A DNA stretch of 64,000 nt from Polyangia bacterium (lineage in GTDB: Bacteria > Myxococcota_A > Polyangia > Fen-1088), in the NCBI GenBank assembly GCA_035548155.1, contig DASZUD010000231.1, positions 5,986 to 69,985 of the forward strand, read 5' to 3'. Positions 12,083 through 40,278 of this stretch are shown here, piece after piece. The notes below the pieces were generated by a model, which saw nothing but the letters and a program-made list of their open reading frames with translations, made no database searches and had not been told where the DNA came from. The first letter of the stretch is position 1. The number at the start of each line of letters is the position of its first letter. A program made the position numbers and the translations under genes.

Positions 12083-12276
12083 GCGGCAAGCATATCGGCG
12101 CCGCGAGCATTCGTAAATGCTCGCTCTGCCCTGCGCGAGCACTTGTCGCTCCTTGTGGGACTTGTGTCACATCCCACATGCGACGGCGATCTCGCTCGCT
12201 TCGCGCGCCCTAAGGGCGGCGCGGGCCGCGAATACACCTCCCGTCGCGGAAAATTGCTGGTAATTTTGGCGGGCCC

Positions 12277-14781
12277 ATGGCGTCCCCCGACTCGGCACGA
12301 AGTGACCGGTACCACAGGTGGGTGACGAAGCATCCGGTGCTCGTCCTCTTGATCGCGACGCTCGTGGCGGCGGGAGGCGCGTTCCTCGCGTCGAAGCTGC
12401 GGCTCAAGACGGCGTTCGTCGAGCTCCTGCCCAACAACGACCCCGGCGTCGTGGCCCTCGCGCGCACGCAGAAGCGCATCGGCGACCTCTCGCTGCTGCT
12501 CATCGGCGTGCGCTCGCCCGACCACGAAGCGAACCTGCGCTACGCCGAGGCGCTGACGCAGAAGCTGCGAGCGATGCCGGACCGCGTGGTGCAGCTCGCC
12601 GCCTACAACATCCGCGACGTCCGGAGCTTCTTCCAGAAGAACAAGTGGCTCTACGCCTCGGAGGACGACCTCGAGTCGATCCGCGACCGCCTGCGCAGCG
12701 AGATCAGCAAGCGCAAGAACCCGCTCTACGTCGCGCTCGGTGACGAAGAGTCGCTCGAGGACATGCAGAAGCGGCTCGCGGAGCACAAAGATCCCGTCGA
12801 GGAGCGCTTCCCGGGCGGCGTCTTCACGAGCAACAACGGCGAGTACGTTTGGATCGCCGCGCTGCCGCCGGGCGGCCTCTTCGCCGAGAACGCCGGCGAG
12901 GGCCTGTTCAAGGCCGCGCACCGGCTGATCGCCGAGCTGCCGCCCACGAGCTTCCATCCCGAGATGCGGGCCGAGGTCTCAGGGCCCATCGCGACGGCCA
13001 TCGCCAGCCGCGAGGCGGTCGAGCGCGACATCCTGTGGGTCACGGTGACCTGCCTCGTCGTGGTCGCGCTGTCGATCGGCGTCTATTTCCGCCGCCTGCG
13101 CGCGATCCCCCTCACGGGGGCCCCGGCCGTCGTGGGCGCGGCGCTGGCGTTCGGCGTGGCCCAGCTCGCGTTCGGCTACCTGAACTCGTCGACGGCGTTC
13201 CTCGGGTCGATCATCCTCGGTAACGGCATCAACTACGCGATCGTCGTCATGTCGCGCTACGAGGAGCAGCGCGCGCGCGGCGACAATGCGGACGCGGCGT
13301 TGCGCGCGGCGCTGGCCGGTACCTGGCGCGGCACGCTGGTGGCGTCGATCTGCGCGTCGGCGGCGTACGCCTCGCTGATGGTGACGAGCTTCCGCGGCTT
13401 TTATCAGTTCGGTGTCATGGGCGCCGTGGGCGCGCTGTTCTGCTGGGCCGCCTCGTACACGGTGCTGCCGGCGATGCTGGTCATCCTCGACCGGCGCGGC
13501 GGCGACGGCGCCCCGCGGGGGCGCGCGCCTCTGGACCTCGGGCCGCTGGCGCGGTTGCTCGGCCGCCACGGCGCGGCGGTCTCGGTCGTCGTGACGATCA
13601 TCGGCGCGGGCTCGCTGCTGGGCCTCACGCACTTTCTCAAAGACCCGTTCGAGTACGACTTCCGCCGGCTCAACGCGAAGCTGAACTCGACGAAAGAGGC
13701 CCAGGAGTTCGGCAAGAGCTTCGACAAGCTCTTCGGCCGGTGGCCGTCGCCCACCATCGTGCTCGCCGACTCGGTCGACGAGGTCGAAGACATCAAGCAG
13801 ACGATCCGGCGGCAAGACGCCGAGCAGGCGGCCCAGCGTCCCGATCCGAACGCGCCCGGCGCCAAGACCATCGGGCAGATCGTCACGATCTACGATCTCC
13901 TGCCCGGGACGCCCGAGGTGCAGCAGCGGAAGCTGGCGCTGATCGCCGACATCGACAAGCTGAAGCACGACAAGTCGCTGGCGCTGCTGACACCGGACGA
14001 ACGGAAGAAGCTGGACCAGATCGACCCGCCGAACGATCTCCACGAGCTCAAGCCGATGGACTTGCCGGCGATCGCGCGCCGGCCGTTCTCCGAGGTCGAC
14101 GGCACCGTCGGCCGCGTCGTGCTCGTCTACCCGGTCGAGCAGGGCATCTCGGTGTGGAGCGGCCGCGATCTCTTGCGCATGGCCGGGGTGCTGCAGTTCC
14201 TGCACTTGCCCTCTGGCAAGGAGCTCGAGACGTCAGGCTCGGCCGTCGTGTTCGGTGCGATGATCCGCTCGATCCTGCACGACGGGCCCATCGCGACGAT
14301 CGTGTCGCTCGTGGCGGTCATCCTGCTGGTGCTCGCCACGATCCGGCCGCTGCGCGCGGCGCTGGTGGCCGTGGGCATCCTCCTCCTGGGGGTGGTGGTG
14401 ATGGTGGGCGGCGCGGGCTGGGCGCGCGTGCACGTGACCTTTCTCAACTTCATCGCGCTGCCGATCACGTTCGGCATCGGCGCCGAATACGTGCTGAACG
14501 TCGTGACGCGCTACCGCGAGGAGAAGGACATCCTGCGCGCCGTCATCTCGACGGGCGCGGCGGTCGCGCTGTGCTCGTGGACGACGATCGTCGGCTACGG
14601 CTCGCTGCTGGCGGCGCGCAACCAGGCGCTGCAGGGCTTCGGCGCCATGGCGATTCTGGGCGAGGTGGCGTGCCTCTCGGCGGCCATCGTCGCGCTGCCG
14701 GCGTTCATCATCTGGCGCCAGCAACGCCGGCGCAGCGCCGAGGTGCCCGCGCCAGCCAGCAGCGTCGACGCCGCGTCCTGA
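12277..14781 (+). CDS. MMPL/RND-superfamily exporter (sterol-sensing-domain type, HpnN-like).
   Basis: The 834-aa protein has two sets of transmembrane helices separated by large soluble loops. Its overall layout matches MMPL/RND transporters. Confidence 0.75.
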   Translation: MASPDSARSDRYHRWVTKHPVLVLLIATLVAAGGAFLASKLRLKTAFVELLPNNDPGVVALARTQKRIGDLSLLLIGVRSPDHEANLRYAEALTQKLRAMPDRVVQLAAYNIRDVRSFFQKNKWLYASEDDLESIRDRLRSEISKRKNPLYVALGDEESLEDMQKRLAEHKDPVEERFPGGVFTSNNGEYVWIAALPPGGLFAENAGEGLFKAAHRLIAELPPTSFHPEMRAEVSGPIATAIASREAVERDILWVTVTCLVVVALSIGVYFRRLRAIPLTGAPAVVGAALAFGVAQLAFGYLNSSTAFLGSIILGNGINYAIVVMSRYEEQRARGDNADAALRAALAGTWRGTLVASICASAAYASLMVTSFRGFYQFGVMGAVGALFCWAASYTVLPAMLVILDRRGGDGAPRGRAPLDLGPLARLLGRHGAAVSVVVTIIGAGSLLGLTHFLKDPFEYDFRRLNAKLNSTKEAQEFGKSFDKLFGRWPSPTIVLADSVDEVEDIKQTIRRQDAEQAAQRPDPNAPGAKTIGQIVTIYDLLPGTPEVQQRKLALIADIDKLKHDKSLALLTPDERKKLDQIDPPNDLHELKPMDLPAIARRPFSEVDGTVGRVVLVYPVEQGISVWSGRDLLRMAGVLQFLHLPSGKELETSGSAVVFGAMIRSILHDGPIATIVSLVAVILLVLATIRPLRAALVAVGILLLGVVVMVGGAGWARVHVTFLNFIALPITFGIGAEYVLNVVTRYREEKDILRAVISTGAAVALCSWTTIVGYGSLLAARNQALQGFGAMAILGEVACLSAAIVALPAFIIWRQQRRRSAEVPAPASSVDAAS

Positions 14782-16821: not shown

Positions 16822-27360
<10,539 letters not shown>

Positions 27361-27518
27361 TGAGCTCCTCCAGATATCGGATCGGATCGGCGCTGACGCG
27401 CAGACGAGACGAACTACCGTTCGGTGAACGAACGAATCACGCTCGAGACAACTGCGAGAAAGACGGGGAGTGACGCCACTGCTGCGGGGGGATCGCTTCG
27501 CTCTAAACCTGCGAAACG

Positions 27519-27550
27519 GGGTAGAAAATCGGGAAGAAATTTATATCACG
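27519..27550 (-). promoter_or_regulatory. AT-rich island (gtagaaaatcgggaagaaatttatatcacg) inside the 492-nt intergenic region upstream of the giant TPR gene. On the minus strand it contains TATAAAT.
   Basis: It is a local AT spike in a ~70% GC background. The minus-strand hexamer is -10-like. No clean -35 was found. Confidence 0.25.
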
Positions 27551-27852
27551 CGCCATCGTCGCGAAGAACACGAAAACTTGACCCGGAAGGCGGTCTCGCG
27601 CGTCGCCAGCGACCCGTTCGAGCCCGTTGCCATCTCTCGCACACCATCCCACCGCGTGCTTCTGCAGAGGGACCCCGGAGCCGTGAGCATCGCCGGCCCC
27701 TTCTTCAAGGTCCGGACCACGCAAACTCACGAACGAGTCCTTCTCGCCAGGAGCTCGACCGCGATCGCCGTCCCCCAAAGCAAAACAGCCAGGCCCGCGA
27801 GGACCTGGCTGGTTGGGGTGCCCGACGGCGCGCGCGGCGCCCGAGCGACTGA

Positions 27853-28767
27853 CTACGGCCCGGACAGGGCGTAGAGCTTGTCGTTCGCCGCCTTGACGTA
27901 GTTCCCGTCGGCGGCCTTCCCGCTGTTCGTGACGAACTTCTGCAGGTACTCGCGCGCCTTGTCCTTCTGGTCGTTGCCGTGGGCCTCGTCGTACCAGTCG
28001 GAGTAGGCCATGCCCGCGTTGTAGAGGGCGTCGAACAACTCGGGGTCGAGGTCGATGGCCTTCTTGAACTCGGCCGTCGCCTGCTCGTACTGCTTGAGGT
28101 TCTTGAGCGCGAGCCCGTAGCCGTTGTGGCACTCGCCGTCGTCTTCCTTGGCCGTCACGCAGCCCTGAAAGACCTGCGCCGCCTCCTTGTTGAAGTCGTA
28201 GTCGAGGTACAGGTACCCGAGGGCGACGTACGACTTCGAGAAGCGCGGGTTCGCCTCGATGGCGCTGCGGAGGGCGTCGTCCGCCTCCTTTGGGTGATCG
28301 AGGACCTTGCGCACGAGGCCGAGGCGCCACCACGCCTTGAACAGCTTCGCGTCGGCCGACGTGGCCGCCGCGAACGCCTTCTCGGCCTGGTCGAGCTTCT
28401 TCTGCTCGAAGTACGCCTCGCCGAGGTCGTACTGGTAGTTGGCGTTGTTGGGCGTGTGGGCCACGGCCTGCTCGAACGACTCGATGGCCTTGTCCCACTT
28501 GCGCTGCTTCTGGAAGACCTTCCCGAGGTTGTAGTACGCGATGTCGTACGTCGGATCGGTCTGGATCGCCTGCTTGAGGTCCTTCTCCGCCGAGTCGTAG
28601 AGGTTGTTCTTGAACTCGTCGGCGCCCTTGTTGGCGAGCTCGATGGCCTTGATGCGCTCCTGGCTGCAGGTGAAGCCTTCGCAGGCCGGGAGCACGAAGC
28701 CGATCGCCAGGACGATCGCCTGAGGGGTCAGCAGTCGACTGAACGTCTTCGACTTGGACATGGTCAC
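27853..28767 (-). CDS. TPR-repeat lipoprotein (AgmV/GltH-like).
   Basis: A lipobox LPAC follows a signal peptide. TPR repeats are present (YYNLGKVF, YQYDLGEAY). Its start overlaps the stop of the FHA gene by 4 nt. Confidence 0.8.
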   Translation of the reverse strand: MTMSKSKTFSRLLTPQAIVLAIGFVLPACEGFTCSQERIKAIELANKGADEFKNNLYDSAEKDLKQAIQTDPTYDIAYYNLGKVFQKQRKWDKAIESFEQAVAHTPNNANYQYDLGEAYFEQKKLDQAEKAFAAATSADAKLFKAWWRLGLVRKVLDHPKEADDALRSAIEANPRFSKSYVALGYLYLDYDFNKEAAQVFQGCVTAKEDDGECHNGYGLALKNLKQYEQATAEFKKAIDLDPELFDALYNAGMAYSDWYDEAHGNDQKDKAREYLQKFVTNSGKAADGNYVKAANDKLYALSGP

Positions 28768-30962
28768 TCTCCACCGCCCGCGGGCGTCAGGACGAACGGA
28801 TACGAGACGATGACGATACCGCCGCCGAGGGGCTTCGGGAACTCCCAGCGACGAACCGCCTGCACCGTGCAGTTCTCGACGCGGGCGTTGCCCATCGTCG
28901 AGTTCTGGAGGACCGAAGCGATGACCTGACCGGACGCCGCGATGGTGAACTGCACCATGATGCGGCCGCCGAGGTCGGGCTTCTTCGTGAGCTCCTGCTC
29001 ATAGCAGTACTTCACCTCGTTGATGTGGCGGCGGATGATGCGGCGGATGATCTCCTTGTCGAGCGAGCCGCGCACGGCCGCCTGACCCGGGATGACGTCC
29101 GGCGCCTTCGCGCGACGGCCGCCGAGGCCGCCGGCGCCGCGGCCGTAGCCGCTGCCGTTGCCGCCGCCGCCGCCCTTGCCGATCGTCCCCAGGTTGCCGA
29201 GGCCGATCGTGCCCTCGCCCGTACCGCCGCCGCCCGAGCCCGTGCCGACCAGGCCGAGACCGCCGACGCCGTAGGCCTCGCCGATCTGGTTGCCGATGAG
29301 GCCGCCCAAGACGTCCTCCGCGTCGTTGCCCAGGGCCGAATCCCGTCCAAAGATGGACGCGATGTGCGAGCCCTCGTTCATCTTGAGGACGCCGAGGATG
29401 CCGGCGTTCTTCGCCTGCTCCTCAGCGAGCTTCTTGGCGAGGTGCGGATCGGGGTTGTCCTTCGGACCCTTGAGGCCGTAGAGACCCTCCTTGTTCTTGG
29501 AGGTCTTCTTGCCCATCTTGCCTTCTTCGCCCTTGTGGCGCTTGCCCTTGCCGCCCTGCTCCTCGTTCTTCTTCGACTTGAGCCACTCGGGGATGTCCTC
29601 TTCCTTCTCCTCCGGCGGCTTGATGAGGAACTTCACGAAGCGGTTGTCGGAGTTGAAGAGGTCGAGCGAGAGCGACTTCGGGTCCGGCGGGACCGAGAAG
29701 ATCATGAGGAGGAACAGCAGCAGCGCGACGCTGGAGCCGACCGTGTAGATCTGCTCGTCCCACTTCCACGTGAGGAAGGGAACCTCGAGCGCGCGCGGGC
29801 GGTTCGTCGCCGAGACGAGGAACGTCGACTCGCCGCAGTCCAGCTTGGCGCGGGCGCCCTGGGGCAGCGAGAAGCTCGAGCCGCGCTGGGCGATGAACTG
29901 CTGCAGCGGGTAGAGCTGGTTGTCGACGTACACCTCGCCGGTCATGCGGGGGGTGACGTTGACCACGTAGTCGGCGCCCGTCGCCGCGACCAGCGGGTGC
30001 GAGGGCGAGGGCACGAACTCGGGCGACACCGGCGCGTCGACGCCCGAGTCGGAGCCGATGATGAAGTTCGGGCTGGTCTTGCCGCGGCGCTTGAGGCCCA
30101 TGTACGAGAGCGCGATGCCGGCGGCGAAGCCACCGAACACCAGAACGCCCGGAAGCGGCGAGCGCGTCTTCCACGTGAACGTCTTCGCCTCGTTGCCCGA
30201 CGCCGTCCACTGCTCATAGGCGGCCTTCTCGGCGCCGACGTCCATGGCCGTGGCGACGAACACGATGAGCGCGAGCGCGGCGGCGGCGATGCCGCCGTAC
30301 ATCATCGACGTGCCCTGGCCGTGCGTGCTCTTGCCCTCGGGGTTGAAGAGGTGGCGCGTGCCCGTGACGACGCCGCGGAAGACCGTCTGGACCTCCATGG
30401 CGCGCGAGCCGTCCATCACCTCGACGTCGGCGCTGCCGCCACCCATCGAGGCGCCGTAGCCGCCAGCACCGGGCGGGGGCGCGAAGCCGCCGCCAGCGGG
30501 CGCGGCCGCCGCGAAGGGCTGCGGAGCCGACGGCACGTAGCCGGGAGGCGGCGCGAAGCCACCGGGAGGCGGCGCGATGCCCAGGCTCGTCTTCTGGCCC
30601 ACACGAGGACCGGACGGAGGGGCGGCCGGCGGCGGCGTCAGCTGCGCGGCGGCGTCGAGGAACGTGACGCGCACGCGGCTGTCGCCGAACATGATCTCGT
30701 CGTTCGAGTTGAGCTTCGCCTTGCTGATGCGCTCGCCGTTGACCAGCGTGCCGCGCGTCGAGCCGAGGTCGATGATGTGGATCTCATCGGGCCCCGTGAC
30801 CTCGATGACGGCATGCATGCGCGACACCGTCTCGTCGTCGATCCGCAGGTGCGACGAGGCCAGCTTCCCGACCTTGATCACATCCTGAGCGAGGGTCTCT
30901 TCGCGAACGAGCGCGTCCCCCTTGTAGATCTCGAACTTGATGGGGACCTTCACGTCGGCCAT
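28764..30962 (-). CDS. FHA-domain protein with a TonB-C-like AgmX/PglI-type C-terminal domain (PglI/GltG-like).
   Basis: An N-terminal FHA domain is present (SRMHAVIEVTGPDEIHIIDLGSTRGTLVNGERI). A Pro-rich linker and one transmembrane segment follow. The C-terminus reads LDKEIIRRIIRRHINEVKYCYEQELTKKPDLGGRIMVQFTIAASGQV, typical of the myxobacterial AgmX/PglI C-terminal domain. Confidence 0.85.
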   Translation of the reverse strand: MADVKVPIKFEIYKGDALVREETLAQDVIKVGKLASSHLRIDDETVSRMHAVIEVTGPDEIHIIDLGSTRGTLVNGERISKAKLNSNDEIMFGDSRVRVTFLDAAAQLTPPPAAPPSGPRVGQKTSLGIAPPPGGFAPPPGYVPSAPQPFAAAAPAGGGFAPPPGAGGYGASMGGGSADVEVMDGSRAMEVQTVFRGVVTGTRHLFNPEGKSTHGQGTSMMYGGIAAAALALIVFVATAMDVGAEKAAYEQWTASGNEAKTFTWKTRSPLPGVLVFGGFAAGIALSYMGLKRRGKTSPNFIIGSDSGVDAPVSPEFVPSPSHPLVAATGADYVVNVTPRMTGEVYVDNQLYPLQQFIAQRGSSFSLPQGARAKLDCGESTFLVSATNRPRALEVPFLTWKWDEQIYTVGSSVALLLFLLMIFSVPPDPKSLSLDLFNSDNRFVKFLIKPPEEKEEDIPEWLKSKKNEEQGGKGKRHKGEEGKMGKKTSKNKEGLYGLKGPKDNPDPHLAKKLAEEQAKNAGILGVLKMNEGSHIASIFGRDSALGNDAEDVLGGLIGNQIGEAYGVGGLGLVGTGSGGGGTGEGTIGLGNLGTIGKGGGGGNGSGYGRGAGGLGGRRAKAPDVIPGQAAVRGSLDKEIIRRIIRRHINEVKYCYEQELTKKPDLGGRIMVQFTIAASGQVIASVLQNSTMGNARVENCTVQAVRRWEFPKPLGGGIVIVSYPFVLTPAGGGE

Positions 30963-31089
30963 GGGCGTGCTCCTCTAGGGTTGCTCGAACCTAGAAGTCG
31001 CTTCGAAGGGCCGTCGGATTCAGGTCCCACTCGTGGAGCCTCGAGAGGCGCCTCGACAACGGCGCGCCCGGAGGCCTCCAACGAGTCGC

Positions 31090-31126
31090 GGGGCGAGGCC
31101 CCGCGGGAGGGTTTGGGAACCCTCCC
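31090..31126 (-). other. Intercistronic stem-loops (ggggc-gag-gcccc and gggagggtt-tggg-aaccctccc) immediately after the GltF-like stop codon.
   Basis: Perfect 5-bp and 9-bp stems are seen in the sequence. They sit 13-49 nt downstream of the 31139 stop on the minus strand and 130 nt before the FHA gene. Confidence 0.3.
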
Positions 31127-31138
31127 AGGGTTCCCGTC

Positions 31139-31414
31139 CTAAACGTCTTCGAGAGACTTCAACATCTCGGGGATGAAATCTTTCCGGATCTCGATGAGGC
31201 TGGAGTGCTCCGTCTTCTTCAAGGAGTTGACCAGCTCGCCGTCGGGACGCTGCAGGTCGCCTTCGACCATGTCGTCCTCGAAGTCGTAGACGGTCTTCGC
31301 CTTGTACTGCACGCCGTCGTCGCCACCGCCGGCAGCCGGCTTGTCAGCTGCGAAGGCGCGGCCAGAGGAAACCCCGACGAGTCCGAGAAGAGCCATTCCA
31401 ATGATGAGCTTCAT
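31139..31414 (-). CDS. Small secreted protein (91 aa, GltF-like by position).
   Basis: A signal peptide MKLIIGMALLGLVGVSSGRAFA is present, followed by an acidic mature region. Its position between the AglT-like and PglI-like genes is the same as gltF. Confidence 0.6.
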   Translation of the reverse strand: MKLIIGMALLGLVGVSSGRAFAADKPAAGGGDDGVQYKAKTVYDFEDDMVEGDLQRPDGELVNSLKKTEHSSLIEIRKDFIPEMLKSLEDV

Positions 31415-31613
31415 GTCGCTTCTCCTTGCGGGGAACCTGACGGCGGGTATTCAGACAACCGACAGGCTCTCCAGTTCCGAAGAATCTTACTCCGGTGAAC
31501 TTTTTTTTCTCAGCTGGGCCGATATTACCGACGAGAGCGCTGGCTTCGCCAGCGTGGCGATGCGTCAAGCCGACCGGGTGGGGGCGGCGGGAGGACCTTA
31601 GGCCCCCCTGCCC

Positions 31614-33356
31614 TCACTTCTTCTTGCCCTTCTTCTTGCCGCCGCCGTCGGCCGGAGCCGAGGCGCCGTCAGTCCCAGGAGCGGCCGGTGCAGTGGCAGC
31701 AGGCGGCTCGGTGCCGGGCTTGGCGTCGCCACCGGCTTTGGCCTTCTCGGCAGCGGCCTTGTCGGCTGCCTCCTGGGCCTCCTGCTTCTTCATCTGCTCT
31801 TCCATCTGCTTCTGCTGCTCTTCGGCCTTCTTCTGCATCTCCTCGGCCTCGGCCTGCATCTTCGCGGCCTCGTCGAGGGCGACGTAGATCTCGTCGATGT
31901 CCTTGATGCGCTTCTCGGCGTCGCGCTTGAGGCCATCGGGCGTCGAGCCGGTCGCGTGCGAGAGGAACTGGCGGTAGTAGTCCTGCGCCTGGTGCAGCGC
32001 CGGCTTCTGGCCGTCCTTGTAGTCCTGATACAGCAGCCCGAGGTTGTAGTAGCTCGACGGGTTCGCCGAATCGAGCTTCTGCGCCGCCTTGTACTGCGAT
32101 TCGGCGTCGTCGATCTTCTTGTTGCCGCGCAGCGCGACGCCGAGGCCGATCGCGGCCTCGTAGTTCTTCGGCTGCATCTTCAGGGCCTCGCGGAAGTTCT
32201 CCTCGGCAGTGCCGTAGTCGCGGTTGTTGAGCGACAGGGCCGCCAGGTTGAGGCGCGCCTCGGCCAGCGTCGGATCCAGCGCGACCGCGTCCTTGAACTG
32301 CTTGATCGCGGGGCTGATGTTCTTCTTCTTCAGCTCGACGAGGCCCAGCGTGTTGTGCACCACGGCGAGCTGCTTCTTCATCTCGGGGGTGACGCCCGTG
32401 CCGGCCTCGCGCACGTCGACCGACTTCACGCCGGGCTCGTCGCCTTCCTTCTCCTTGCCCTTCCCCTTCGCGCCCTTGCCCTTCCCCTTGCCCTTTCCGT
32501 CCTCGGCGTCGCCGCCCGGCTGCTTCTCTTCCTCGAACTTGCCGGTCGCGATCTCGTCCGCCTTCTTGATGGCCTGGTTGCCGACCAGCTTGGCCATCTC
32601 GAGCATGTTCATGTCGTAGTAGATGAACGCCAGCGTCGAGAACGCCTGCAGGTTGTTGCTGTCGATCGCGAGGACCGTGCGCAGGTTGCTGACCGCTTGC
32701 TGGACGTACTGCTTCTTCTCGTCCGGGCCCGCGCGGCGCGCCTTGTCGCGAAGGATCTGCGCCAGGTTGTTGCGCGCCTCGACCGTGTGCAGCGGATCGA
32801 CGTCGATCGCGCGCATGAAGTACGACTCCGCCTTGCCGGTGTCGCCGTTCTTCCAGGCGACGTAACCCAGGTTCGCGATCGCCGGCCCGTACTTGGGCAT
32901 CTTCTCCCAGATCGAGATGGCGTCGTCCTCTTTGCCGCACTCGGCGAGCACGGCGCCCTGGTTGAAGCGCGCCTCGACGAGGGCCGGGTTCTCGTCGGCC
33001 GCGTTCTTGAACGCGTTCGCGACGCTGCGGCACTCCGAGCCCGAGAGCCCGCCCGACTTCTTGGCTTCGAGGTACTGCTTCGTCGCCTTCTCGAAGTCGG
33101 CGCGCGCGTCGGCGCTGATCTGGCGCTTGGCCTCCTTCGGGATGATCTCGGACGCGTTCGGCTTGTTCTCACCGCCGATGAGGCCGTCTTCGCCTCCCGC
33201 CGACTGCGAAGACGGGATCTGCGTCGAGCCGCAGGCCGAGAGGGTCAGGGCCAGGCCGAGGGCCAGGCCCGACATTCCCGCGGACTGCCCGAGGCGCGTG
33301 GGGAGCAGGTTCTTCTTCATCGTGTTCTCCACCTGGGTCCTCATGGCGACGCTCAC
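31614..33356 (-). CDS. TPR-repeat lipoprotein with a C-terminal Lys/Glu-rich coiled coil (AglT/GltE-like).
   Basis: A lipoprotein signal (LALTLSAC) is present, with several TPR units and a basic KKKGKKK tail. The track start is GTG at 33356, overlapping the upstream stop in an ATGA-like arrangement. An ATG alternative lies at 33320 (MKKNLLP). Confidence 0.8.
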   Translation of the reverse strand: MSVAMRTQVENTMKKNLLPTRLGQSAGMSGLALGLALTLSACGSTQIPSSQSAGGEDGLIGGENKPNASEIIPKEAKRQISADARADFEKATKQYLEAKKSGGLSGSECRSVANAFKNAADENPALVEARFNQGAVLAECGKEDDAISIWEKMPKYGPAIANLGYVAWKNGDTGKAESYFMRAIDVDPLHTVEARNNLAQILRDKARRAGPDEKKQYVQQAVSNLRTVLAIDSNNLQAFSTLAFIYYDMNMLEMAKLVGNQAIKKADEIATGKFEEEKQPGGDAEDGKGKGKGKGAKGKGKEKEGDEPGVKSVDVREAGTGVTPEMKKQLAVVHNTLGLVELKKKNISPAIKQFKDAVALDPTLAEARLNLAALSLNNRDYGTAEENFREALKMQPKNYEAAIGLGVALRGNKKIDDAESQYKAAQKLDSANPSSYYNLGLLYQDYKDGQKPALHQAQDYYRQFLSHATGSTPDGLKRDAEKRIKDIDEIYVALDEAAKMQAEAEEMQKKAEEQQKQMEEQMKKQEAQEAADKAAAEKAKAGGDAKPGTEPPAATAPAAPGTDGASAPADGGGKKKGKKK

Positions 33357-36300
33357 TTGCCCTTACCCGCCGAGACGGTCTCCGACAGCTCCGGGATGAC
33401 CGGCGTCGGCGACATGTTCGTCGAGACGTAGCCAGCCTCGGGCTTGACCTCCGAGGAGAGCGGGTACTCGGACGGCTTCATCTGGTTCAGCTCGCGCTCG
33501 CAGAGGCGCGACCACTCGTTGTACCAGGACTGCTCCGTCGCCGCTTTGAGGCACTTCTCGAACCCGTCGACGGCCTTCGACTCGATCGGTTCGGCCTTGT
33601 CTTCGAGCGCGTCGCAGAAGATCTGGCGAGGCTGATTGCCCCACTCGTCCTGCTCCTTGAGGTCCTTCGGAATCTCGGCCGTGTACAGCTGGCCGGCGAA
33701 GTCGCTGTAGATCTGGCCGACGCGCGCCGCGGACGCGATCGTCCACTGGGCCTGCTTCATGCCGAACACGTCGAGGTACTGCGTGCGCGCCTTCTCGAGG
33801 GCCTTGGCCTTCTCGTCCAGGTAGGCCGTGAACTTCTTGCCCGACTCTTCGGCCTTCTTCTTCTTCGCGGCCGCCTTCTTGGGCGTGTCGTAGGACGACG
33901 GCTGCTGGAAGTCGAGGCCCTCCGGAAACTTGATGCGGAGGAAGTTCTCGTACGACGACTCGGCCAGGTAGAACGCCGAGCCCGCGACGGCGTAGGCCGC
34001 GAGCCCCGCCCGCGCCTCGACGTCCTTGCCCGTGATCTTCGAGGCCGCGGCGCCCTTGTTCCAGATCTTGAGGACGGCCTGGAAGTGCTCCTGCGCCTTC
34101 GACGCCTGTGCCTTGCTGCGGTCGAAGAGGTTGATCTTCGACTTGGTCGGAGGGCCGCACTGCGTGCGCGACTTTTCGTGCAGCTTCTTGCCCTTCTTCA
34201 GCTTCTTGTTGAGGTCGGCGAGGACCTTCTGGCGGCCCGTCGCCGAGACGCGCTTGACCTCGAGGCAGGCGCCGTCTTCCGAAGCCTTCGGGCACGACGC
34301 CTTCCAGGCCATCTCGCCCAGCTTGAAGTGCGCGAGGATCTGACGATCGGGGCCGCCCTGCGCGCCCCACGTCTTGAGATAGCTCTCGAGGTGCTTGGCC
34401 AGCTCGTCCTTGCGGCCGTCCTTCTCGTAGACGTCGCCCATCTGGAAGTACACGCCGGCTGCGTCCTGCGGCTTGCGCTTGCCGTAGAAGTCGACGAACG
34501 ACTTCATATCGGTCAGGGCGCGGTCGCCCTCGCCCAGGCCGATGCGGAACGTCGTCGCGTTGCCGAGCGCGTCCGTGGCCTTCTTCTCACCCGGGAACTT
34601 CTTGGCGAAGTCCTCGTAGTAGTCCGACGCCTTCGAGTAGTAGGCGAGCTGGTGGTACCCGGCGGCCACGCGGAAGAGCGCCTTCTGCGCCAGCGGATCC
34701 TTCTCGTGATCCTTGATGAGCTGGAGGCGCGCCTTCAGCGCCTGGCCGACGAGGTGCGCATTCTGGAAGCACTGGCCGGCGTTCCAGAGGCGCTCCGCGT
34801 GCTTCGGGTGTTCGGGCAGCGACTCGGCCGCGGCCAGCATCGAACGGCCGCACTCCTTGTAGTTGTGCAGCTTCTCGAACTCGTGGCCTTCCATGTCGTA
34901 CGTGTCCGAGCGCAGCGAGATCATCTGCTTGCCGAACTCGGGATCCTTCATGAGGCACTGCTTGTCGAGGAACTTGTCGACGTTCTCGACGACCTCCTTC
35001 GTCTTCCCGAGCGCGTTGAGCGAGTCGAGGAGGAGGTTGGCCGAGTAGATCGCGAGCTCGTCGTCACAGTGCTTGTCGACGATCTCCTGAAAGAGCGGCG
35101 CGGCCTCCGCGAAGTGGTTGTACTCGTAGAAGATGCGCGCGCGACGGTACATGATCGTGACCGTCTCCTTCGCGTCGGGCACGTACTTCAGGTACGTGTC
35201 GAACGCGTTGATCATCTTCTGCTGGTACTCGGGGATCTTCAGCGGCTCGAGCTTCGTGCTCTGCTGGCCGTTTTCCTTCTTGTCGTTGCGCGACGCCTCG
35301 ACCTGATCCTTCTGCTCGTGGTCGTCGACGTTCAGGGCGTTCTTCCACGCGAGCACGGCCGCGTAGGCGGCGTCCTTCACGTACTTGCCCTTCGGGTTCA
35401 TCTCCACGACCTTCGTGTACTGCTCGGCGGCGTCCTTCCAATTCTCGAGCGTCCACAAGAGCTCCCCGTAGTAGAAGCCCATGTCGTAGGCGTCCTTGTC
35501 CTGCGGGAAGTGGTCGAGGAAGACCTTGTACACGTACTTGTCGAGCGCGTACGTGTCGCTGTTCTTCGTGCGCTGGGCTTCCTTGTGCCAGATGAGCGCC
35601 AGCTCCTTGGCCGTGTCGTGGAAGGAGTTACGGCACTCCTCCATCTGGTCCTTCTTCACGCCGCCCTTCATCTCGCCGACCTTGTCGTAGACGGCGCCGA
35701 GGCGTTCGATCTCCTGGACCTGATCCTTCTTCGTGCCCGCCGAAAGCGTGTTGCGGACGATCTTGTTTTGCCACTCGCAGATGCGCGGCGAGTCCATGTT
35801 CATGGAGATCACCTTGCGGTACACGCGCGTCGAGTCGCCGAACTGGCCCTGCTCCCAGTAGAGCTCGGCCAGGCCTTCCATCATCTTCGGCGCGAAGTCG
35901 CCGCCCACGCGCTGGAAGAACTCCCAGGCCTTGTCCGGGCCGCCGACGTGGGCGTACGCCTTGACGATGTCCTTCTTCGCTTCCTTCTCGAGCGACTTGG
36001 CCTGGTTCGCGTTCACGTTGGCGCGGTGCTCCTGCACCATGCGCACGACGCCGACGAACGTCTCGAGGGCGGTCTTGTAGTCGCCCTGGTTCACGTAGCA
36101 CCACCCCTTCTTGTAGACGGCGTAGGGGTAGACGCTGGACTTCGGGAACTGCTCGACCTTCTCGTAGAACTTGAGGGCCGCGTCCATCTCGGCCTTGTCG
36201 AAGTAGAACTCGGCGAACGACAGGTAGGCGTCCGGGATGTACTTCGAGTTCGGGTAGTCCTTGATGAGGCGGAGGAAGAACTCGCGCGCCTGGTCCTCCT

Positions 36301-36916
36301 TCTTCACCGAGGTGAGGAGGTAGGCGAGCTTGAAGAGCACCTCATCCATGCGCTCGTACTTCTTGAACTTGGTCGCCTGGACGTACGACTTGACGGCCTC
36401 GAGCAGCCACTTCTGCTGGTCGCTCTCGTACTTCTTCTGCTGGTTCTGAAGAGTCGCCTTCTGCGCGGGCGGCGCGTCGAAGATCTTCTGATCGAGCGCG
36501 CGCGCCTGGTTGAAGTTGTAGCGCTGCTTCTCCGCGTAGAGCTCGGCGAGGCGGAAGTGGAAGTCCGGCTTCTGCGGATCGTCGTCCTGCGTGACCTGGA
36601 TGAGGCGACGCATCTTGATGATCTGCGCGTCGACCAGCTTCTGGATCTCGCCCTGCTTCTGGAAGATGAACTGGTCGACCGTGATGGTCGGGCCCGTCTC
36701 CTTCTGCTTCGGCGGCGGAGCCTGAGGCTTCGTCAGGTTCGTCTGCTGAACGCCCTGGACCTCCTTCTCCTGCTTCTGGTAGCGAGCCTTGCCGCTGTTT
36801 GCCGGCGTCGTCTGTTCACCGCCCGCGGCCAGCGCCATCGACGGCGAGGCGACCGTCAAGGTCGCCGTCAGCGCGAGCGCGCAAGTCCGCAGGGTGGACC
36901 GGAGCTGGTGCTTCAT
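33353..36916 (-). CDS. Large secreted TPR protein of 1187 aa (AgmU/GltD-like).
   Basis: Track ORF 33353..37180 has an R/P-rich 88-codon extension. The start is chosen at MKHQLRSTLRTCALALTATLTVASPSMALA (signal peptide). TPR-like repeats run throughout. Its size and first-in-operon position match agmU. Confidence 0.85.
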   Translation of the reverse strand: MKHQLRSTLRTCALALTATLTVASPSMALAAGGEQTTPANSGKARYQKQEKEVQGVQQTNLTKPQAPPPKQKETGPTITVDQFIFQKQGEIQKLVDAQIIKMRRLIQVTQDDDPQKPDFHFRLAELYAEKQRYNFNQARALDQKIFDAPPAQKATLQNQQKKYESDQQKWLLEAVKSYVQATKFKKYERMDEVLFKLAYLLTSVKKEDQAREFFLRLIKDYPNSKYIPDAYLSFAEFYFDKAEMDAALKFYEKVEQFPKSSVYPYAVYKKGWCYVNQGDYKTALETFVGVVRMVQEHRANVNANQAKSLEKEAKKDIVKAYAHVGGPDKAWEFFQRVGGDFAPKMMEGLAELYWEQGQFGDSTRVYRKVISMNMDSPRICEWQNKIVRNTLSAGTKKDQVQEIERLGAVYDKVGEMKGGVKKDQMEECRNSFHDTAKELALIWHKEAQRTKNSDTYALDKYVYKVFLDHFPQDKDAYDMGFYYGELLWTLENWKDAAEQYTKVVEMNPKGKYVKDAAYAAVLAWKNALNVDDHEQKDQVEASRNDKKENGQQSTKLEPLKIPEYQQKMINAFDTYLKYVPDAKETVTIMYRRARIFYEYNHFAEAAPLFQEIVDKHCDDELAIYSANLLLDSLNALGKTKEVVENVDKFLDKQCLMKDPEFGKQMISLRSDTYDMEGHEFEKLHNYKECGRSMLAAAESLPEHPKHAERLWNAGQCFQNAHLVGQALKARLQLIKDHEKDPLAQKALFRVAAGYHQLAYYSKASDYYEDFAKKFPGEKKATDALGNATTFRIGLGEGDRALTDMKSFVDFYGKRKPQDAAGVYFQMGDVYEKDGRKDELAKHLESYLKTWGAQGGPDRQILAHFKLGEMAWKASCPKASEDGACLEVKRVSATGRQKVLADLNKKLKKGKKLHEKSRTQCGPPTKSKINLFDRSKAQASKAQEHFQAVLKIWNKGAAASKITGKDVEARAGLAAYAVAGSAFYLAESSYENFLRIKFPEGLDFQQPSSYDTPKKAAAKKKKAEESGKKFTAYLDEKAKALEKARTQYLDVFGMKQAQWTIASAARVGQIYSDFAGQLYTAEIPKDLKEQDEWGNQPRQIFCDALEDKAEPIESKAVDGFEKCLKAATEQSWYNEWSRLCERELNQMKPSEYPLSSEVKPEAGYVSTNMSPTPVIPELSETVSAGKGK

Positions 36917-36974
36917 CGTTCGATTCTCCACGGATGATTTCTCCACGGTGAAGGACATCGCCTGACTGCTGACG

Positions 36975-38672
36975 CTACGGAGTGACCGCGGGAGCGGCCT
37001 CGGGAGCCGCGGCCGGCGCCGCCGCCTCGCCCGTCGCCGGCGCGCCCTCGGGCGCGTTGCGCGCGCACTTGTTGGCGATGCGGACGCGGTAATAGCCGAG
37101 CTCGTCGCGCCAGTACTCGCCCGTGAACGGCCACATCTGGTGCTCGTCGTCGACGCGGATCTCCTCGGAGCGCTTGCCACCGCCGCCCTGCACGATCTGC
37201 TGCTCCTGGATGACCTCCTGCTCGAGGGCGCCCTTCTGGCCCTGCAGGATTTCGTACTCGATCTTGATCACGCGCTTGATGAGCTGCGCGAGCTCGTCCG
37301 TGAGGCGGATGATGCGGCGGCGCGCCAGATCACCGGCCTCGTTCACCGCGAGCGACCGCTGCAGCGTCAGGTCGGCGAAGACCGTTTGCGCGATGTTCGT
37401 CGACTTCCAGGCCGGCTCGGCCTTGTCGTGCTGCTTGAGCTCGCGATCGAGCTCGTCGACGTACTGGAAGCGCTTGACGAGGCTCATGTCCCCGAGGACG
37501 CCGCGCGCAGCGCGCTCGACCTGCTCCGGCAGGCCCGACGTGCCCTTGCGGATCTTGACGGCCGTCTCGTAGAGCGCGGCGTTGTCCGTCTCCGACATCA
37601 CGAGCTTCTTGAGCTCGGTGAAGACCTGGGGATAGACGGCGTTGAACTCGTCGATTGATTCCTCGGCGCGATCGTAGAGGCAGTTATAGAAGTAGATCGT
37701 CGCCTTGACCGAGAGGCCCTCGGCCACCGACTCGGGCTTGATCGTGTTCTCGAAGTACGGCGCCTGGATCGTGTGGATGTTGCCGAGCGCCTTCGAGTAG
37801 CCCTTCTGCTTGAGCATGAAGTTCGCCCACGACGACTCGAAGAGGCTGTTCGCCCAGTCGTAAGAATCAGGCGAGACCTTGTCGAAGTACTTCGCGGCCA
37901 GCTCGAACTGGCCCGTCGAGTAGAACGTGCGCGCGAGCGACAGGTTCGCGAGATCCTCGAACGGCTTGATCTCGGGCTTCGTGCTCTCGGCCGAGGCGCG
38001 GAGGACCTCCTTGAACGAGTCGACGGCGGGCTTCGCCTGGTACTCGCGGACGTGCGTCGCGCCCTCGAACAGCTTCGCCTGGACGTAGAACTCGCTCGAG
38101 GTCGGCACGGCGCCGAACAGCTCGACGGCCTCCTTGAAGCTGCCCTTCTGATAGTAGTACTTGCCGAGCAGGAAGTAGAGCTCGTCCTTCACCTGCTCGA
38201 GCGCGGGCTGATCGAGCTCCGCGCGGTTGTACTTACCGATCTTCTCGAGGATGCCCGTCGAGTCGGGGAGCTTGCGCGACAGCGACGCGAGCCACTTCAG
38301 CGTCGCGTTGTAGTAGGCGTGCGACGGGCCCTTCTGGACGATGCGGTCGAAGTACGACAGCGACGCCGAGTAGAACTTCATGTTGTAGAGGGCCTTGCCC
38401 ATCCAGAACTCGGCCTTCTGCTTGTTCGCCTCGGTGTCGCCGGACTCGCCTTCGACGACCTTGTTGAGCTCGATCGAGGCGGAGTAATAGTCCTCGCCAT
38501 CGTAGAGCTTGAACGCGCGCTCGAGGACCTTCGACGGCTGATCGCCCGTGGGCGCAGCCTCCGGTTGGAAGTCCTTCGAGGGAGCCGTCTTCTTTTTCTT
38601 CGCCAGCGCCACCTGCGTGGAGAGGCAAAGGGACGTCATGAGGACGATGCCGACTGCGCGCTTTCGGCTCAT
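36975..38672 (-). CDS. Secreted helical-repeat (TPR-like) protein of 565 aa, encoded first in the Glt-like cluster.
   Basis: A signal peptide MSRKRAVGIVLMTSLCLSTQVALA is present. The body is Tyr/Leu-rich helical repeats. It lies 58 nt upstream of the AgmU-like gene on the same strand. Confidence 0.75.
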   Translation of the reverse strand: MSRKRAVGIVLMTSLCLSTQVALAKKKKTAPSKDFQPEAAPTGDQPSKVLERAFKLYDGEDYYSASIELNKVVEGESGDTEANKQKAEFWMGKALYNMKFYSASLSYFDRIVQKGPSHAYYNATLKWLASLSRKLPDSTGILEKIGKYNRAELDQPALEQVKDELYFLLGKYYYQKGSFKEAVELFGAVPTSSEFYVQAKLFEGATHVREYQAKPAVDSFKEVLRASAESTKPEIKPFEDLANLSLARTFYSTGQFELAAKYFDKVSPDSYDWANSLFESSWANFMLKQKGYSKALGNIHTIQAPYFENTIKPESVAEGLSVKATIYFYNCLYDRAEESIDEFNAVYPQVFTELKKLVMSETDNAALYETAVKIRKGTSGLPEQVERAARGVLGDMSLVKRFQYVDELDRELKQHDKAEPAWKSTNIAQTVFADLTLQRSLAVNEAGDLARRRIIRLTDELAQLIKRVIKIEYEILQGQKGALEQEVIQEQQIVQGGGGKRSEEIRVDDEHQMWPFTGEYWRDELGYYRVRIANKCARNAPEGAPATGEAAAPAAAPEAAPAVTP

Positions 38673-38857
38673 ACAGAAACCTCGCTTTGAGTGGCCGATG
38701 GGGGATGGACCCGGGGCGGAATAGCCGTTCGTGATCGGGGATCAGGTCAGGCAGTAAGGCTCTGCAAAGGACGATCAATAGATTCTTGGGGGACGTCCTT
38801 TAGTACTCGACGACGCGGTGACAACCCCCTACAGAGGAGTGTGACCGCGTGTAAAAG

Positions 38858-38902
38858 CACACCCTAAAACCGGGCCATGCTCGCAAAGCGCTTTAGGGGT
38901 GT
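38858..38902. promoter_or_regulatory. Long inverted repeat cacaccctaaa[N23]tttaggggtgt with an internal palindrome aaagcgcttt, in the divergent intergenic region upstream of the Glt-like cluster.
   Basis: It is seen in the sequence, 190-230 nt upstream of the 38672 start on the minus strand and 290 nt upstream of the plus-strand lipoprotein gene. Confidence 0.35.
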
Positions 38903-39189
38903 CAAGCGTGGAGTGACTCCGCTCGAGCGCTAATTCAGCCTTGAAAAATCGAGAGATCGAGCGACGGAAACGGACGGATGCGGACACGGATCGGCATCCC
39001 AAGGAAGCCTTGACAGGTATGGTCGGGTGGGTAACATGGCGCGGCCTCACGCCCCCGGCACAAACCAGCCGCGAAGCCCGAGTCGATTGCGAGCCGAACT
39101 TGTTTCAGAAGTCGTTTGAGTCGTCTCGCGGGAAGTTCCCAATCGACCGGCGGCGCGAAACGTCTCTCCCCCATGGGCAAGGAGCTCTC

Positions 39190-39669
39190 ATGACGTTGTC
39201 CCCCCGTTTTCTCTCGAAGCTCGCGGCGTTCGGTCCCTTCGCGCTCGCCGTCGTATTGGGGGGGGCGTTGATGACGAGCGGCTGCGAGGACAAGCACATC
39301 GGGCGCGTCTGCTCGCTCGACGTCCCCGACGCCAGCGTGTCTCAGACGGGCACGACCGCGACGTTCAACGGCCAGGCCGTCGAGTGCCCGACCCGCATCT
39401 GCGTCCTGCCGGCCGCCGAGAAGACCACGAACACGACCGCGCTGTGCTCGGCCTTCTGCTCGTCGGACGACGACTGCGACGGCGAGACCGGCAGCTCGAG
39501 CAGCACGCAGTGCAAGTCGGGCTTTGCGTGCGTCTACCCGACGACCGTCGGGTCCTTCTGCTGCCAGAAGATGTGCATCTGCAAAGACTTCATCGACACG
39601 ACGAGCAAGACGTTCCACGACAAGCCGGCCGCGTGCAACGCGCCGTCGACTTGCCAGAACGTGCACTGA
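39190..39669 (+). CDS. Cys-rich lipoprotein (159 aa).
   Basis: An AAGGAG Shine-Dalgarno sits 7 nt before ATG 39190. The start MTLSPRFLSKLAAFGPFALAVVLGGALMTSGC carries a lipobox. The mature protein contains 16 Cys. The track ORF starts earlier at 38941. Confidence 0.6.
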   Translation: MTLSPRFLSKLAAFGPFALAVVLGGALMTSGCEDKHIGRVCSLDVPDASVSQTGTTATFNGQAVECPTRICVLPAAEKTTNTTALCSAFCSSDDDCDGETGSSSSTQCKSGFACVYPTTVGSFCCQKMCICKDFIDTTSKTFHDKPAACNAPSTCQNVH

Positions 39670-39737
39670 CAGCTCGCTGCGCGGGAGGGGCTTCGCCGTC
39701 TCGCGGGCCCTTCCCCAAGTCCCCCCTGAGGTGAGCC

Positions 39738-39769
39738 GGGCCAGAGAGGCTGGCCCTCGCCGTTCTTGG
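39738..39769 (+). terminator. Candidate intrinsic terminator gggccag-agagg-ctggccc followed by TCGCCGTTCTTGG.
   Basis: It lies 69 nt downstream of the lipoprotein stop at 39669. It has a 7-bp GC stem and a moderately T-rich tail. Confidence 0.35.
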
Positions 39770-39842
39770 ACGCGCTCGCTGCGCGCGCTCCGACGGCCGC
39801 GACTTGCCGCGCGCTGTTCACGACGCGCGCGCTGGTGCTGAC

Positions 39843-39900
39843 GGAGACCGTTCGCGCGAACCGCTTTCGGTCTCCCTCTCCCCGGTGGGCGGGGAGAGGG
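39843..39900. terminator. Two adjacent strong hairpins between convergent genes. They are ggagaccg[ttcgcgcgaa ccgcttt]cggtctcc and ccctctcccc[ggtgggc]ggggagaggg.
   Basis: Perfect 8-bp and 10-bp inverted repeats are seen in the sequence. They lie between the lipoprotein (plus) and the YciI-like gene (minus, stop at 39925). Confidence 0.35.
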
Positions 39901-39924
39901 TCGGGACGTGAGGGGCGTGGGTGA

Positions 39925-40278
39925 CTACTGCGGGCCCGGCACGTAGATCTGGTGCAGCTCGCAGGTGCCTTCGCCGGCGACGGCGAGGAAGCGCCGGGAG
40001 AGCTCGATCACGGCCTCGCGCGAGGGAGCCTCGAGGATGGCGTAGCCGCCGAGGACCTCTTTGGCCTCGGCGAAGGGGCCGTCGACGACGGAGACCTTGC
40101 CCTGCGTCGACTTCACGATGAAGCCGTCGTGGCCGGAGTGCACGCCCTCGGTGGCGATGAGCCAACCCTCCTTCATGCCCTCCTCGACCAGCTTCGTCAT
40201 CTTGGCAATCATCTCGGGGTTGGGACCGCCGGTGTGAGACGGATCGGACGGGTGCGTGTAGATGCTGATGAATCGCAT
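39925..40278 (-). CDS. YciI-like (DGPF/YCII-related) small protein.
   Basis: The 117-aa protein starts at MRFISIYTHP. An AAGGAG Shine-Dalgarno lies upstream. The dimeric alpha+beta-barrel family pattern is present. Confidence 0.7.
   Translation of the reverse strand: MRFISIYTHPSDPSHTGGPNPEMIAKMTKLVEEGMKEGWLIATEGVHSGHDGFIVKSTQGKVSVVDGPFAEAKEVLGGYAILEAPSREAVIELSRRFLAVAGEGTCELHQIYVPGPQ

Follow-up and report, generated by a model that had tools for sequence, protein, structure and literature searches.

A probable GltG (PglI)-type transducer with three predicted transmembrane helices and a split central FHA fold in an uncultured Polyangia bacterium

Introduction

Bacterial gliding by focal adhesions is modelled on the Agl-Glt machinery, in which GltG (PglI) is the proposed coupler between motor and envelope. 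In Myxococcus xanthus, PglI has been listed with one transmembrane (TM) segment, and a two-hybrid interaction links AglR to GltG (PMC3169522). This interaction and the need for GltG in gliding are known for M. xanthus only. AlphaFold models of M. xanthus GltG place a central FHA domain (residues 190-329) just before the TM helix, order residues 428-543 in a crevice of GltD, and seat the N-terminal FHA domain at six sites of GltI, a TPR scaffold, with no phosphorylation (PMC11761067). In Sorangium cellulosum So ce56, the genes sce2914-sce2921 were assigned to gltC, D, E, F, G and I by Luciano et al. (Table S3; PMC3169522). Here we describe a gene at positions 28764..30962 (minus strand) of a 64-kb stretch of contig DASZUD010000231.1 (hereafter the window), from an uncultured Polyangia bacterium. 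Its product is probably an inner-membrane transducer of the GltG (PglI) type, serving an envelope machine of Glt type that resembles TolQR/ExbBD. Proteins of this kind are well known. We found no description in the searchable literature of a variant with three TM segments and a split FHA fold, and we would classify the protein as a GltG ortholog from Polyangia that has this form; in all other respects it is the expected family member in a new lineage.

Identification of a GltG-type gene

We found that the open reading frame (ORF) is a real gene: it starts with ATG, a Shine-Dalgarno sequence (GAGGAG) lies 7 nt 5' of this codon, and the GC content at third codon positions (GC3) is 0.94 in a region of ~66% GC. 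From its N-terminus, the 732-residue product comprises an FHA domain (FHA-N), a Pro-rich tether, a split cryptic FHA fold, a TM helix (TM3), a conserved periplasmic linker with a Gly-rich motif, and a C-terminal domain (CTD) of the TonB/TolA type. Its parts, with predicted locations, are as follows.

28764..30962, minus strand: complete coding sequence of the GltG/PglI family, 732 residues plus stop (ORF list, GC3, Shine-Dalgarno sequence, NF033760)
30660..30941, minus strand: FHA-N, residues 8-101, cytoplasmic; non-canonical loop residues GK33, S47-R48-x-H50 and S-T-R70-G-T
30408..30653, minus strand: Pro/Ala/Gly-rich linker, residues 104-185, cytoplasmic; P 23%, A 21%, G 21%
30342..30407, minus strand: strands β1-β2 of the central FHA fold, residues 186-207; modelled strands 187-195 and 198-205
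30087..30323, minus strand: inserted two-helix hydrophobic hairpin, residues 214-292; TM1 ~222-242, loop 243-270, TM2 ~271-291, then KRRGK
29763..30074, minus strand: rest of the central (pseudo-)FHA domain, residues 297-400, cytoplasmic
29688..29762, minus strand: TM3, residues 401-425, equivalent of the single TM helix of M. xanthus GltG
29283..29687, minus strand: conserved periplasmic linker, residues 426-560, with PPDPKSLSLD and a Lys-rich GGKGKRHKGEEGKMGKK motif
29109..29282, minus strand: Gly-rich motif, residues 561-618
28788..29063, minus strand: AgmX/PglI C-terminal domain, TonB/TolA-CTD fold, residues 634-725

The top NCBIfam match of the protein is gliding_GltG (NF033760; 426.5 bits, 2e-127). 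A word-indexed search returned >1100 matches, and the family comprises 2003 representatives (50% clustering, E<=1e-30). The nearest genomic relatives are uncultured Polyangia/Myxococcales metagenome-assembled genomes (MAGs) from soils and fens, the top one being 97% identical in its best segment. FHA-N, a central FHA fold, the AgmX/PglI tail and the glt operon position are all found, as in GltG/PglI proteins broadly; the single TM helix of these proteins is not.

A sequence-only reading of this DNA had described an FHA domain, a Pro-rich spacer, one TM helix, a Gly-rich stretch and a TonB-C/AgmX-PglI tail in a component of the gliding machine. This domain reading was largely right: the FHA domain and the tail match their profiles (scores below), both quoted peptide strings are present, and the membership in a Glt-type envelope machine agrees with neighbours matching GltC, GltE and CglF/GltF in the S. 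cellulosum glt order. The regulatory part of that reading and its spacer idea did not hold up, as described below, and it had missed the second FHA-fold domain and the inserted hairpin. TIGR03901, which it had proposed as a check, gave no match to the protein; we take this model to be a different myxobacterial C-terminal sorting signal.

Functional assignment

We then investigated the genes around gltG, which lie on the minus strand in the order gltC-D-E-F-G-(TPR lipoprotein)-gltI-like.

36975..38672, minus strand: gltC-like gene, 565 aa; NF033756 (gliding_GltC) 301.7 bits, cutoff 450; position of sce2914
33353..37180, minus strand: gltD/agmU-like large TPR gene, up to 1275 aa; TPR/YbgF/BamD-type matches only
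31614..33356, minus strand: gltE/aglT-like TPR lipoprotein gene, 580 aa; NF033758 (gliding_GltE) 126.6 bits, cutoff 225
31139..31414, minus strand: gltF/cglF, 91 aa; NF033764 (gliding_CglF) 87.9 bits, cutoff 90
27853..28767, minus strand: TPR lipoprotein gene, ~300 aa (304); TPR-family matches and an N-terminal lipobox-like LPAC
16822..27360, minus strand: gltI/agmK-like giant TPR protein gene, 3512 aa; many TPR-family matches

The operon is conserved in a relative of ~79% identity as well as in Sandaracinaceae, Bradymonadia and one more Myxococcales MAG. The gltD-like ORF overlaps the gltC-like gene, so its true start is probably internal; its size and position fit sce2915 (1289 aa) and the 1189-1325 aa genes of related operons. 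The start of the TPR lipoprotein gene overlaps or abuts the gltG stop. This gene occupies the gltH position but encodes no β-barrel, and every related Polyangia/Bradymonadia operon examined (L001, L081, L082, L083) encodes a TPR lipoprotein of ~290-300 aa between its gltG and giant TPR genes. The giant gltI-like protein has a hydrophilic N-terminus without a signal peptide and is assigned to the cytoplasm; a giant gene (3379-3997 aa) is kept downstream in divergent operons.

By homology to M. xanthus, for which two-hybrid data and AlphaFold models are available (PMC3169522, PMC11761067), the TM region and the membrane-proximal pseudo-FHA domain would dock on the AglR5QS proton channel, as TolA/TonB do on TolQR/ExbBD. 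The conserved periplasmic segment, including the Gly-rich motif, would gain order by binding the large TPR protein GltD, and the TonB-like tail would bind GltD and GltF, thereby coupling the work of the motor to the adhesin complex of the outer membrane. FHA-N would tether the unit, via the variable Pro-rich linker, to the GltI-like scaffold encoded two genes downstream.

Several points weigh against this assignment. The NF033760 score lies below the equivalog cutoff of 650 bits, so that equivalog membership is not reached. The partners are unseen, as none of aglRQS, gltA/B/K, gltH and gltJ lies within the 64-kb window. The partner assignments are all carried over from M. xanthus, and several of those come from AlphaFold models instead of experiments; the source organism is uncultured, so that gliding in it is a presumption. 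In addition, Glt-like clusters of M. xanthus also serve sporulation (Nfs) or have unknown roles (G4, G5) (PMC3169522). The same family and mechanism could accordingly belong to a machine that is not a gliding motor and serves another surface process, like Nfs spore-coat transport or the G4/G5 clusters. The functional diversification of these clusters, the lack of any known phenotype in this MAG lineage, the absence of a gltH-type barrel gene or gltJ adjoining gltG, and the unmet equivalog cutoffs of GltC, GltE and GltG all fit such a machine. We nevertheless consider it unlikely. Nfs clusters are without GltI, GltJ and GltK, yet this operon has a giant TPR gene resembling GltI, which is also conserved in related operons; moreover, synteny links the operon to the S. 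cellulosum genes assigned to glt (PMC3169522). The low scores are common to all non-Myxococcia homologs tested: ten divergent sequences, taken from Polyangia, Bradymonadia and unclassified Myxococcota MAGs, reach only 303-464 bits with NF033760, which points to a narrow model and not to a different family, and none of the 150 library representatives attains the equivalog score. S. cellulosum is itself a gliding organism.

Three predicted transmembrane helices and a split central FHA fold

The single TM helix of the sequence-only reading was replaced by three predicted ones. Hydropathy in 19-residue windows (Kyte-Doolittle, KD) gives TM-grade segments at residues 222-242, 271-291 and 405-425 (KD 2.21, 1.74 and 2.15), and AlphaFold2 (AF2), run with a 149-sequence alignment, predicts helices at residues 214-254, 270-292 and 401-423 with per-residue confidence scores (pLDDT) >90. 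A second AF2 model (residues 181-732) gives all three helices again. The confident regions of the AF2 prediction are FHA-N, residues 181-423 (strands β1-β2 included, pLDDT >90) and residues 636-725. TM3 aligns with the sole TM segment of homologs having one TM helix (1-TM homologs).

The β-rich residues 186-207 and 297-400 together make up a second, membrane-proximal FHA fold. Pfam missed this domain, and Foldseek alone gave no significant match; in hhalign it aligned in register, weakly, with the family's own FHA-N (probability 14.5%, P=0.0019). As a central FHA domain has been reported for M. xanthus GltG, the domain itself was already known. In 1-TM homologs, the alignment shows β1-β2 ("R.VEV...V.HL..P") directly adjoining β3 ("F.IG"), and in the 3-TM forms, including this protein, 85-95 residues with two hydrophobic helices lie between β2 and β3. 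The hairpin occurs in 51 of 118 representatives (26 with FHA-N and 25 without) and is absent in 63; the 3-TM form is thus widespread (~43% of the nearest family representatives). Since 1-TM and 3-TM forms share the same operon context, they are orthologous variants. On a crude neighbour-joining tree, the trait requires ~19 changes, against 38 with shuffled labels. Its distribution is therefore clustered but patchy, and as far as such a tree can indicate, it would be compatible with a single or a multiple origin.

The topology comes from hydropathy and AF2 prediction only, which weighs against a firm count of three. It is conceivable that the helices of residues 214-292 form a soluble or peripheral cytoplasmic hairpin, so that the protein would be bitopic, as is GltG of M. 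xanthus: with 41 residues (214-254), the first AF2 helix exceeds a bilayer crossing, and the connecting loop carries four K/R and three D/E, so that positive charge is not depleted. We regard this as quite improbable, because the two hydropathy peaks are comparable to that of TM3 and the hydrophobicity of the hairpin is conserved while its sequence varies (identity 0.56-0.65). The KRRGK sequence directly after TM2 fits the positive-inside rule, and the even number of hairpin crossings would keep both FHA halves cytoplasmic and the tail periplasmic.

Membrane-spanning helices remain our preferred reading of the hairpin. We infer that it would enlarge the intramembrane interface with the stator, or else anchor the pseudo-FHA domain against the membrane. 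A possible but tentative extension is that a true membrane hairpin lets a three-helix GltG pack against, or partly replace, the periphery of the AglR (TolQ/ExbB-like) pentamer, and that the near-invariant Gly-rich motif may in addition be a specific folded element on GltD and not a linker. If this were true, the coupling of the 5:2 motor to its output would be structurally distinct from that of a TolA-like bitopic transducer.

The periplasmic region

We then investigated the conservation of the protein in 118 full-length relatives with 68-92% overall identity to it. The periplasmic linker (residues 426-560) has a mean identity of 0.91-0.99 and a low pLDDT as a monomer, and its PPDPKSLSLD and Lys-rich motifs are kept in divergent representatives. 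In the Gly-rich segment that follows, the mean identity is 1.00 and 97% of columns are >=95% identical; elsewhere it is 0.80 (FHA-N), 0.97 (TonB-like tail) and 0.37 (Pro-rich linker). Nearly all of the 150 representatives show a 40-residue window with >=40% Gly at an equivalent position, and many of the glycines are invariant, or almost so, when divergent representatives are aligned. A 51-residue Gly-rich peptide is identical in 29 species-level loci, with 28% (10-59%) of its codons differing synonymously, which indicates purifying selection at the protein level. An origin of the tract in DNA identity or repeats was rejected: Tandem Repeats Finder reports only a weak GCC/GGC periodicity, and synonymous sites vary between species. 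The tract had been proposed to be an unusual flexible spacer setting the periplasmic span. As judged from these alignments, no other segment of the protein is as conserved, and the tract characterizes the superfamily instead of serving as a passive spacer; the behaviour of a variable spacer belongs to the cytoplasmic Pro-rich linker, which varies in both sequence and length (pLDDT <50). Coordinate transfer via the NCBIfam profile would put the Gly-rich tract within the segment that is modelled in the GltD crevice and precedes the TonB-CTD.

The tail (residues 634-725) matches the AgmX/PglI CTD model NF033768 with 110.4 bits (cutoff 40), and Foldseek assigns it to the TonB/TolA CTD with a probability of 1.0. 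TIGR01352 (tonB_Cterm) scores 28.5 bits against 27.1, and Pfam TonB_C (PF03544) remains below its cutoff (18.2 versus 24.6 bits). We rejected identity as a classical TonB on account of this sub-cutoff score, the glt operon and the two FHA domains. Two cysteines of the domain, Cys653 (KYC653YE) and Cys698 (ENC698T), are invariant or near-invariant across the superfamily, which suggests that they may form a conserved disulfide. We also found proteins that share the Gly-rich segment and the AgmX/PglI tail at 70-83% identity and have unrelated N-termini (P0201, P0222, P0198, P0257 and L065 10001-10620). Two of them match VIT-like domains and have no TM segment by hydropathy, and one tail-module-only locus shares its MAG with a GltG ortholog. 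The Gly-rich segment and tail look like a shuffled cassette.

The N-terminal FHA domain

FHA-N is a confident FHA domain, as the sequence-only reading had it: Pfam FHA (PF00498) matches residues 30-93 with E=5.4e-17 and 62.4 bits (cutoff 20.7), the AF2 pLDDT is 95-98, and the Foldseek target TM-score (template modelling score) is up to 0.89. The same reading had this domain bind phosphothreonine (pThr) and so couple a kinase input to the envelope machine. In an alignment with the FHA domains of GarA, OdhI and DgcB, Ser47-Arg48-x-His50 is retained, and the canonical Gly-Arg is replaced by Gly32-Lys33 and the canonical Asn of S-x-N-G-T by Arg70. The full canonical set (Gly-Arg, Ser-x-x-His and Asn, equivalent to R70, S85, H88 and N107 of Rad53 FHA1) is thus not found. 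Lys33 and Arg70 are invariant across the 118 close relatives. Among 54 divergent FHA-N-bearing representatives, the canonical Arg position holds K in 24, R in 21, S in 8 and T in 1, and the Asn position holds R, S, K, T, A, E, G or Q, and Asn in none.

Myxobacteria encode many Ser/Thr kinases. FHA-N could be a true pThr reader through which a Ser/Thr kinase and PP2C pair switches the transducer or the whole machine, like PpkA/PppA via Fha1 in the type VI secretion system (T6SS). The conserved Ser47, Arg48 and His50, the Arg at the canonical position in ~39% of the divergent representatives and a possible unlinked kinase partner would suit such a switch, which we nevertheless find very doubtful. 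At the canonical Arg position stands Lys33 in this protein and K, S or T in 33 of the 54; the peptide-contact Asn is lacking from all of them, and a Pfam scan of essentially all high-GC3 ORFs of the window revealed no Pkinase or PP2C gene, nor do the related operons examined contain one. Moreover, no experimental report of GltG phospho-regulation was found in the searchable literature, and the M. xanthus model already docks FHA-N on GltI unphosphorylated (PMC11761067). The sequence thus offers no support for a phospho-Thr switch, although FHA-N itself might still bind pThr, as Lys33 could contact the phosphate.

FHA-N is most likely a docking module for the giant cytoplasmic TPR scaffold and not a pThr sensor, by analogy with the M. 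xanthus model. In 40 of 44 loci, a giant open frame lies downstream of the FHA-N-bearing gene. It is missing at L027, L046, L047 and L052; at the last three of these, the GltG match itself is fragmented, which suggests frameshifted assemblies. The paralogs without FHA-N are orphans lacking the glt operon. The association of FHA-N with the giant TPR gene gives p=3.6e-4 in a Fisher test, a value to be discounted because the FHA-N loci are close orthologs, not phylogenetically independent, and because the association is with the whole operon. An FHA-N bound to this operon is consistent with the published prediction of docking on GltI. Two points count against docking: Ser47, Arg48 and His50 are kept next to a Lys33 able to contact phosphate, and the link to the giant TPR gene is really a link to the entire operon.

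Two kinase-related loci were noted. A 354-aa ORF at 50672-51736 (minus strand) has a sub-threshold match to the C-terminal domain of Fam20C, a secretory-pathway kinase (19.6 bits versus 26.8, E=8e-4); it is the sole kinase-like signal in the window, ~20 kb from gltG. At locus L085 (11491-16133), Ser/Thr protein kinase genes of 582 and 624 aa flank P0127, a short paralog of 491 aa without FHA-N.

Genomic context

The operon is flanked by housekeeping genes, rpsP-khpA-rimM-trmD-rplS upstream and RNase Y downstream. Its GC content is 0.63-0.67, against 0.69-0.75 in the flanks (window positions 26000-40000), and GC3 is still ~0.94. This lower GC content probably reflects the Lys/Glu/Ala-rich composition of TPR proteins and not a foreign origin. 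A near-perfect stem-loop, GGGAACCCT-ggg-AGGGTTCCC (~31105-31140, minus strand), directly follows the gltF stop, within the 176 nt that separate gltF from gltG. It could serve as an attenuator inside the operon, affect RNA stability or mark a processing site. The Bradymonadia operon L082 contains one more gene (486 aa, 12018-13478; weak TonB_C match), which follows gltG, precedes the ~300-aa TPR gene and may encode a GltJ-like second transducer; no equivalent was found in the window. Elsewhere in the window, a gene at 60085-61725 (plus strand) encodes a protein with response-regulator receiver, GAF and HD-GYP-type (HD_5) domains that may act in cyclic-di-GMP signalling; no link between it and the glt operon was established.

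Comparison with known systems

The closest described protein is M. xanthus GltG/PglI (MXAN_4867), which we compared via the NCBIfam profile, the 1-TM homologs and the published coordinates. Both proteins have FHA-N, a membrane-proximal second FHA fold, a TM helix, a long conserved periplasmic Gly-rich segment (annotated as 'abductin-like' in M. xanthus) and a TonB-CTD-like tail, and both genes follow gltF in a gltD-E-F-G operon, then gltI. The Polyangia protein differs in length (732 versus 640 aa) and in having three predicted TM helices versus one, owing to the hairpin of ~90 residues in the β2-β3 loop. The operon differs in the TPR lipoprotein gene found in place of gltH, in a gltC that immediately precedes gltD, and in the lack of an adjacent gltJ. 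The 1-TM and 3-TM orthologs, the constrained Gly-rich segment and the family-wide non-canonical FHA-N loop constrain structural models built on M. xanthus alone. With regard to the published models, the text of PMC11761067 cites PDB entries 7zc8 for the central FHA domain and 3gqs for the TonB-CTD; we found 7zc8 to be the CTD of the TonB homolog FusB and 3gqs to be the FHA domain of CT664, so that the two identifiers appear to be swapped.

In gene order, the locus is identical to sce2914-sce2921 of S. cellulosum So ce56, a member of the same class, Polyangia, in which sce2918 is the GltG homolog. The products there have 568/1289/497/90/681/.../1774+2081 aa versus 565/1275/580/91/732/304/3512 aa here. 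With 681 aa, sce2918 is near the size of the 1-TM Sandaracinaceae protein P0148 (688 aa) and, on size only, is probably without the hairpin. Its neighbour sce2919, at the position of the TPR lipoprotein gene, is missing from the published homolog table (PMC3169522). NfsG (MXAN_3377), an FHA/TonB-domain protein of 682 aa encoded in a gltA-H-like operon, belongs to the closest paralog family of GltG. The nfs clusters lack gltI/J/K homologs (PMC3169522), whereas a 3512-aa gltI-like gene lies two genes downstream here; operon content thus sets the protein apart from the Nfs type.

The protein would work like TolA/TonB and yet does not read as a TonB at the sequence level, as the fold of its tail matches while the Pfam score stays below the cutoff. 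TolA and TonB each carry a single TM helix at the N-terminus and are devoid of cytoplasmic domains, whereas the Polyangia protein has two cytoplasmic FHA folds and three predicted TM helices, and its linker is Lys/Gly-rich and nearly invariant, not Pro-rich or helical. FHA folds fused or tethered to the inner-membrane part of a trans-envelope machine are also found in YscD/PrgH of the type III secretion system and in Fha1/TagH of the T6SS. Pfam Yop-YscD_cpl matches the protein with 43.5 bits (cutoff 33.2), and TIGR03354 (VI_FHA) matches weakly. The T6SS protein Fha1 is a documented pThr reader, and YscD-type domains lack the pThr residues. The machinery of both secretion systems is unrelated to that of the Polyangia protein, which is intermediate between them in its FHA-N loop, keeping S-R-x-H and replacing the canonical Arg and Asn.

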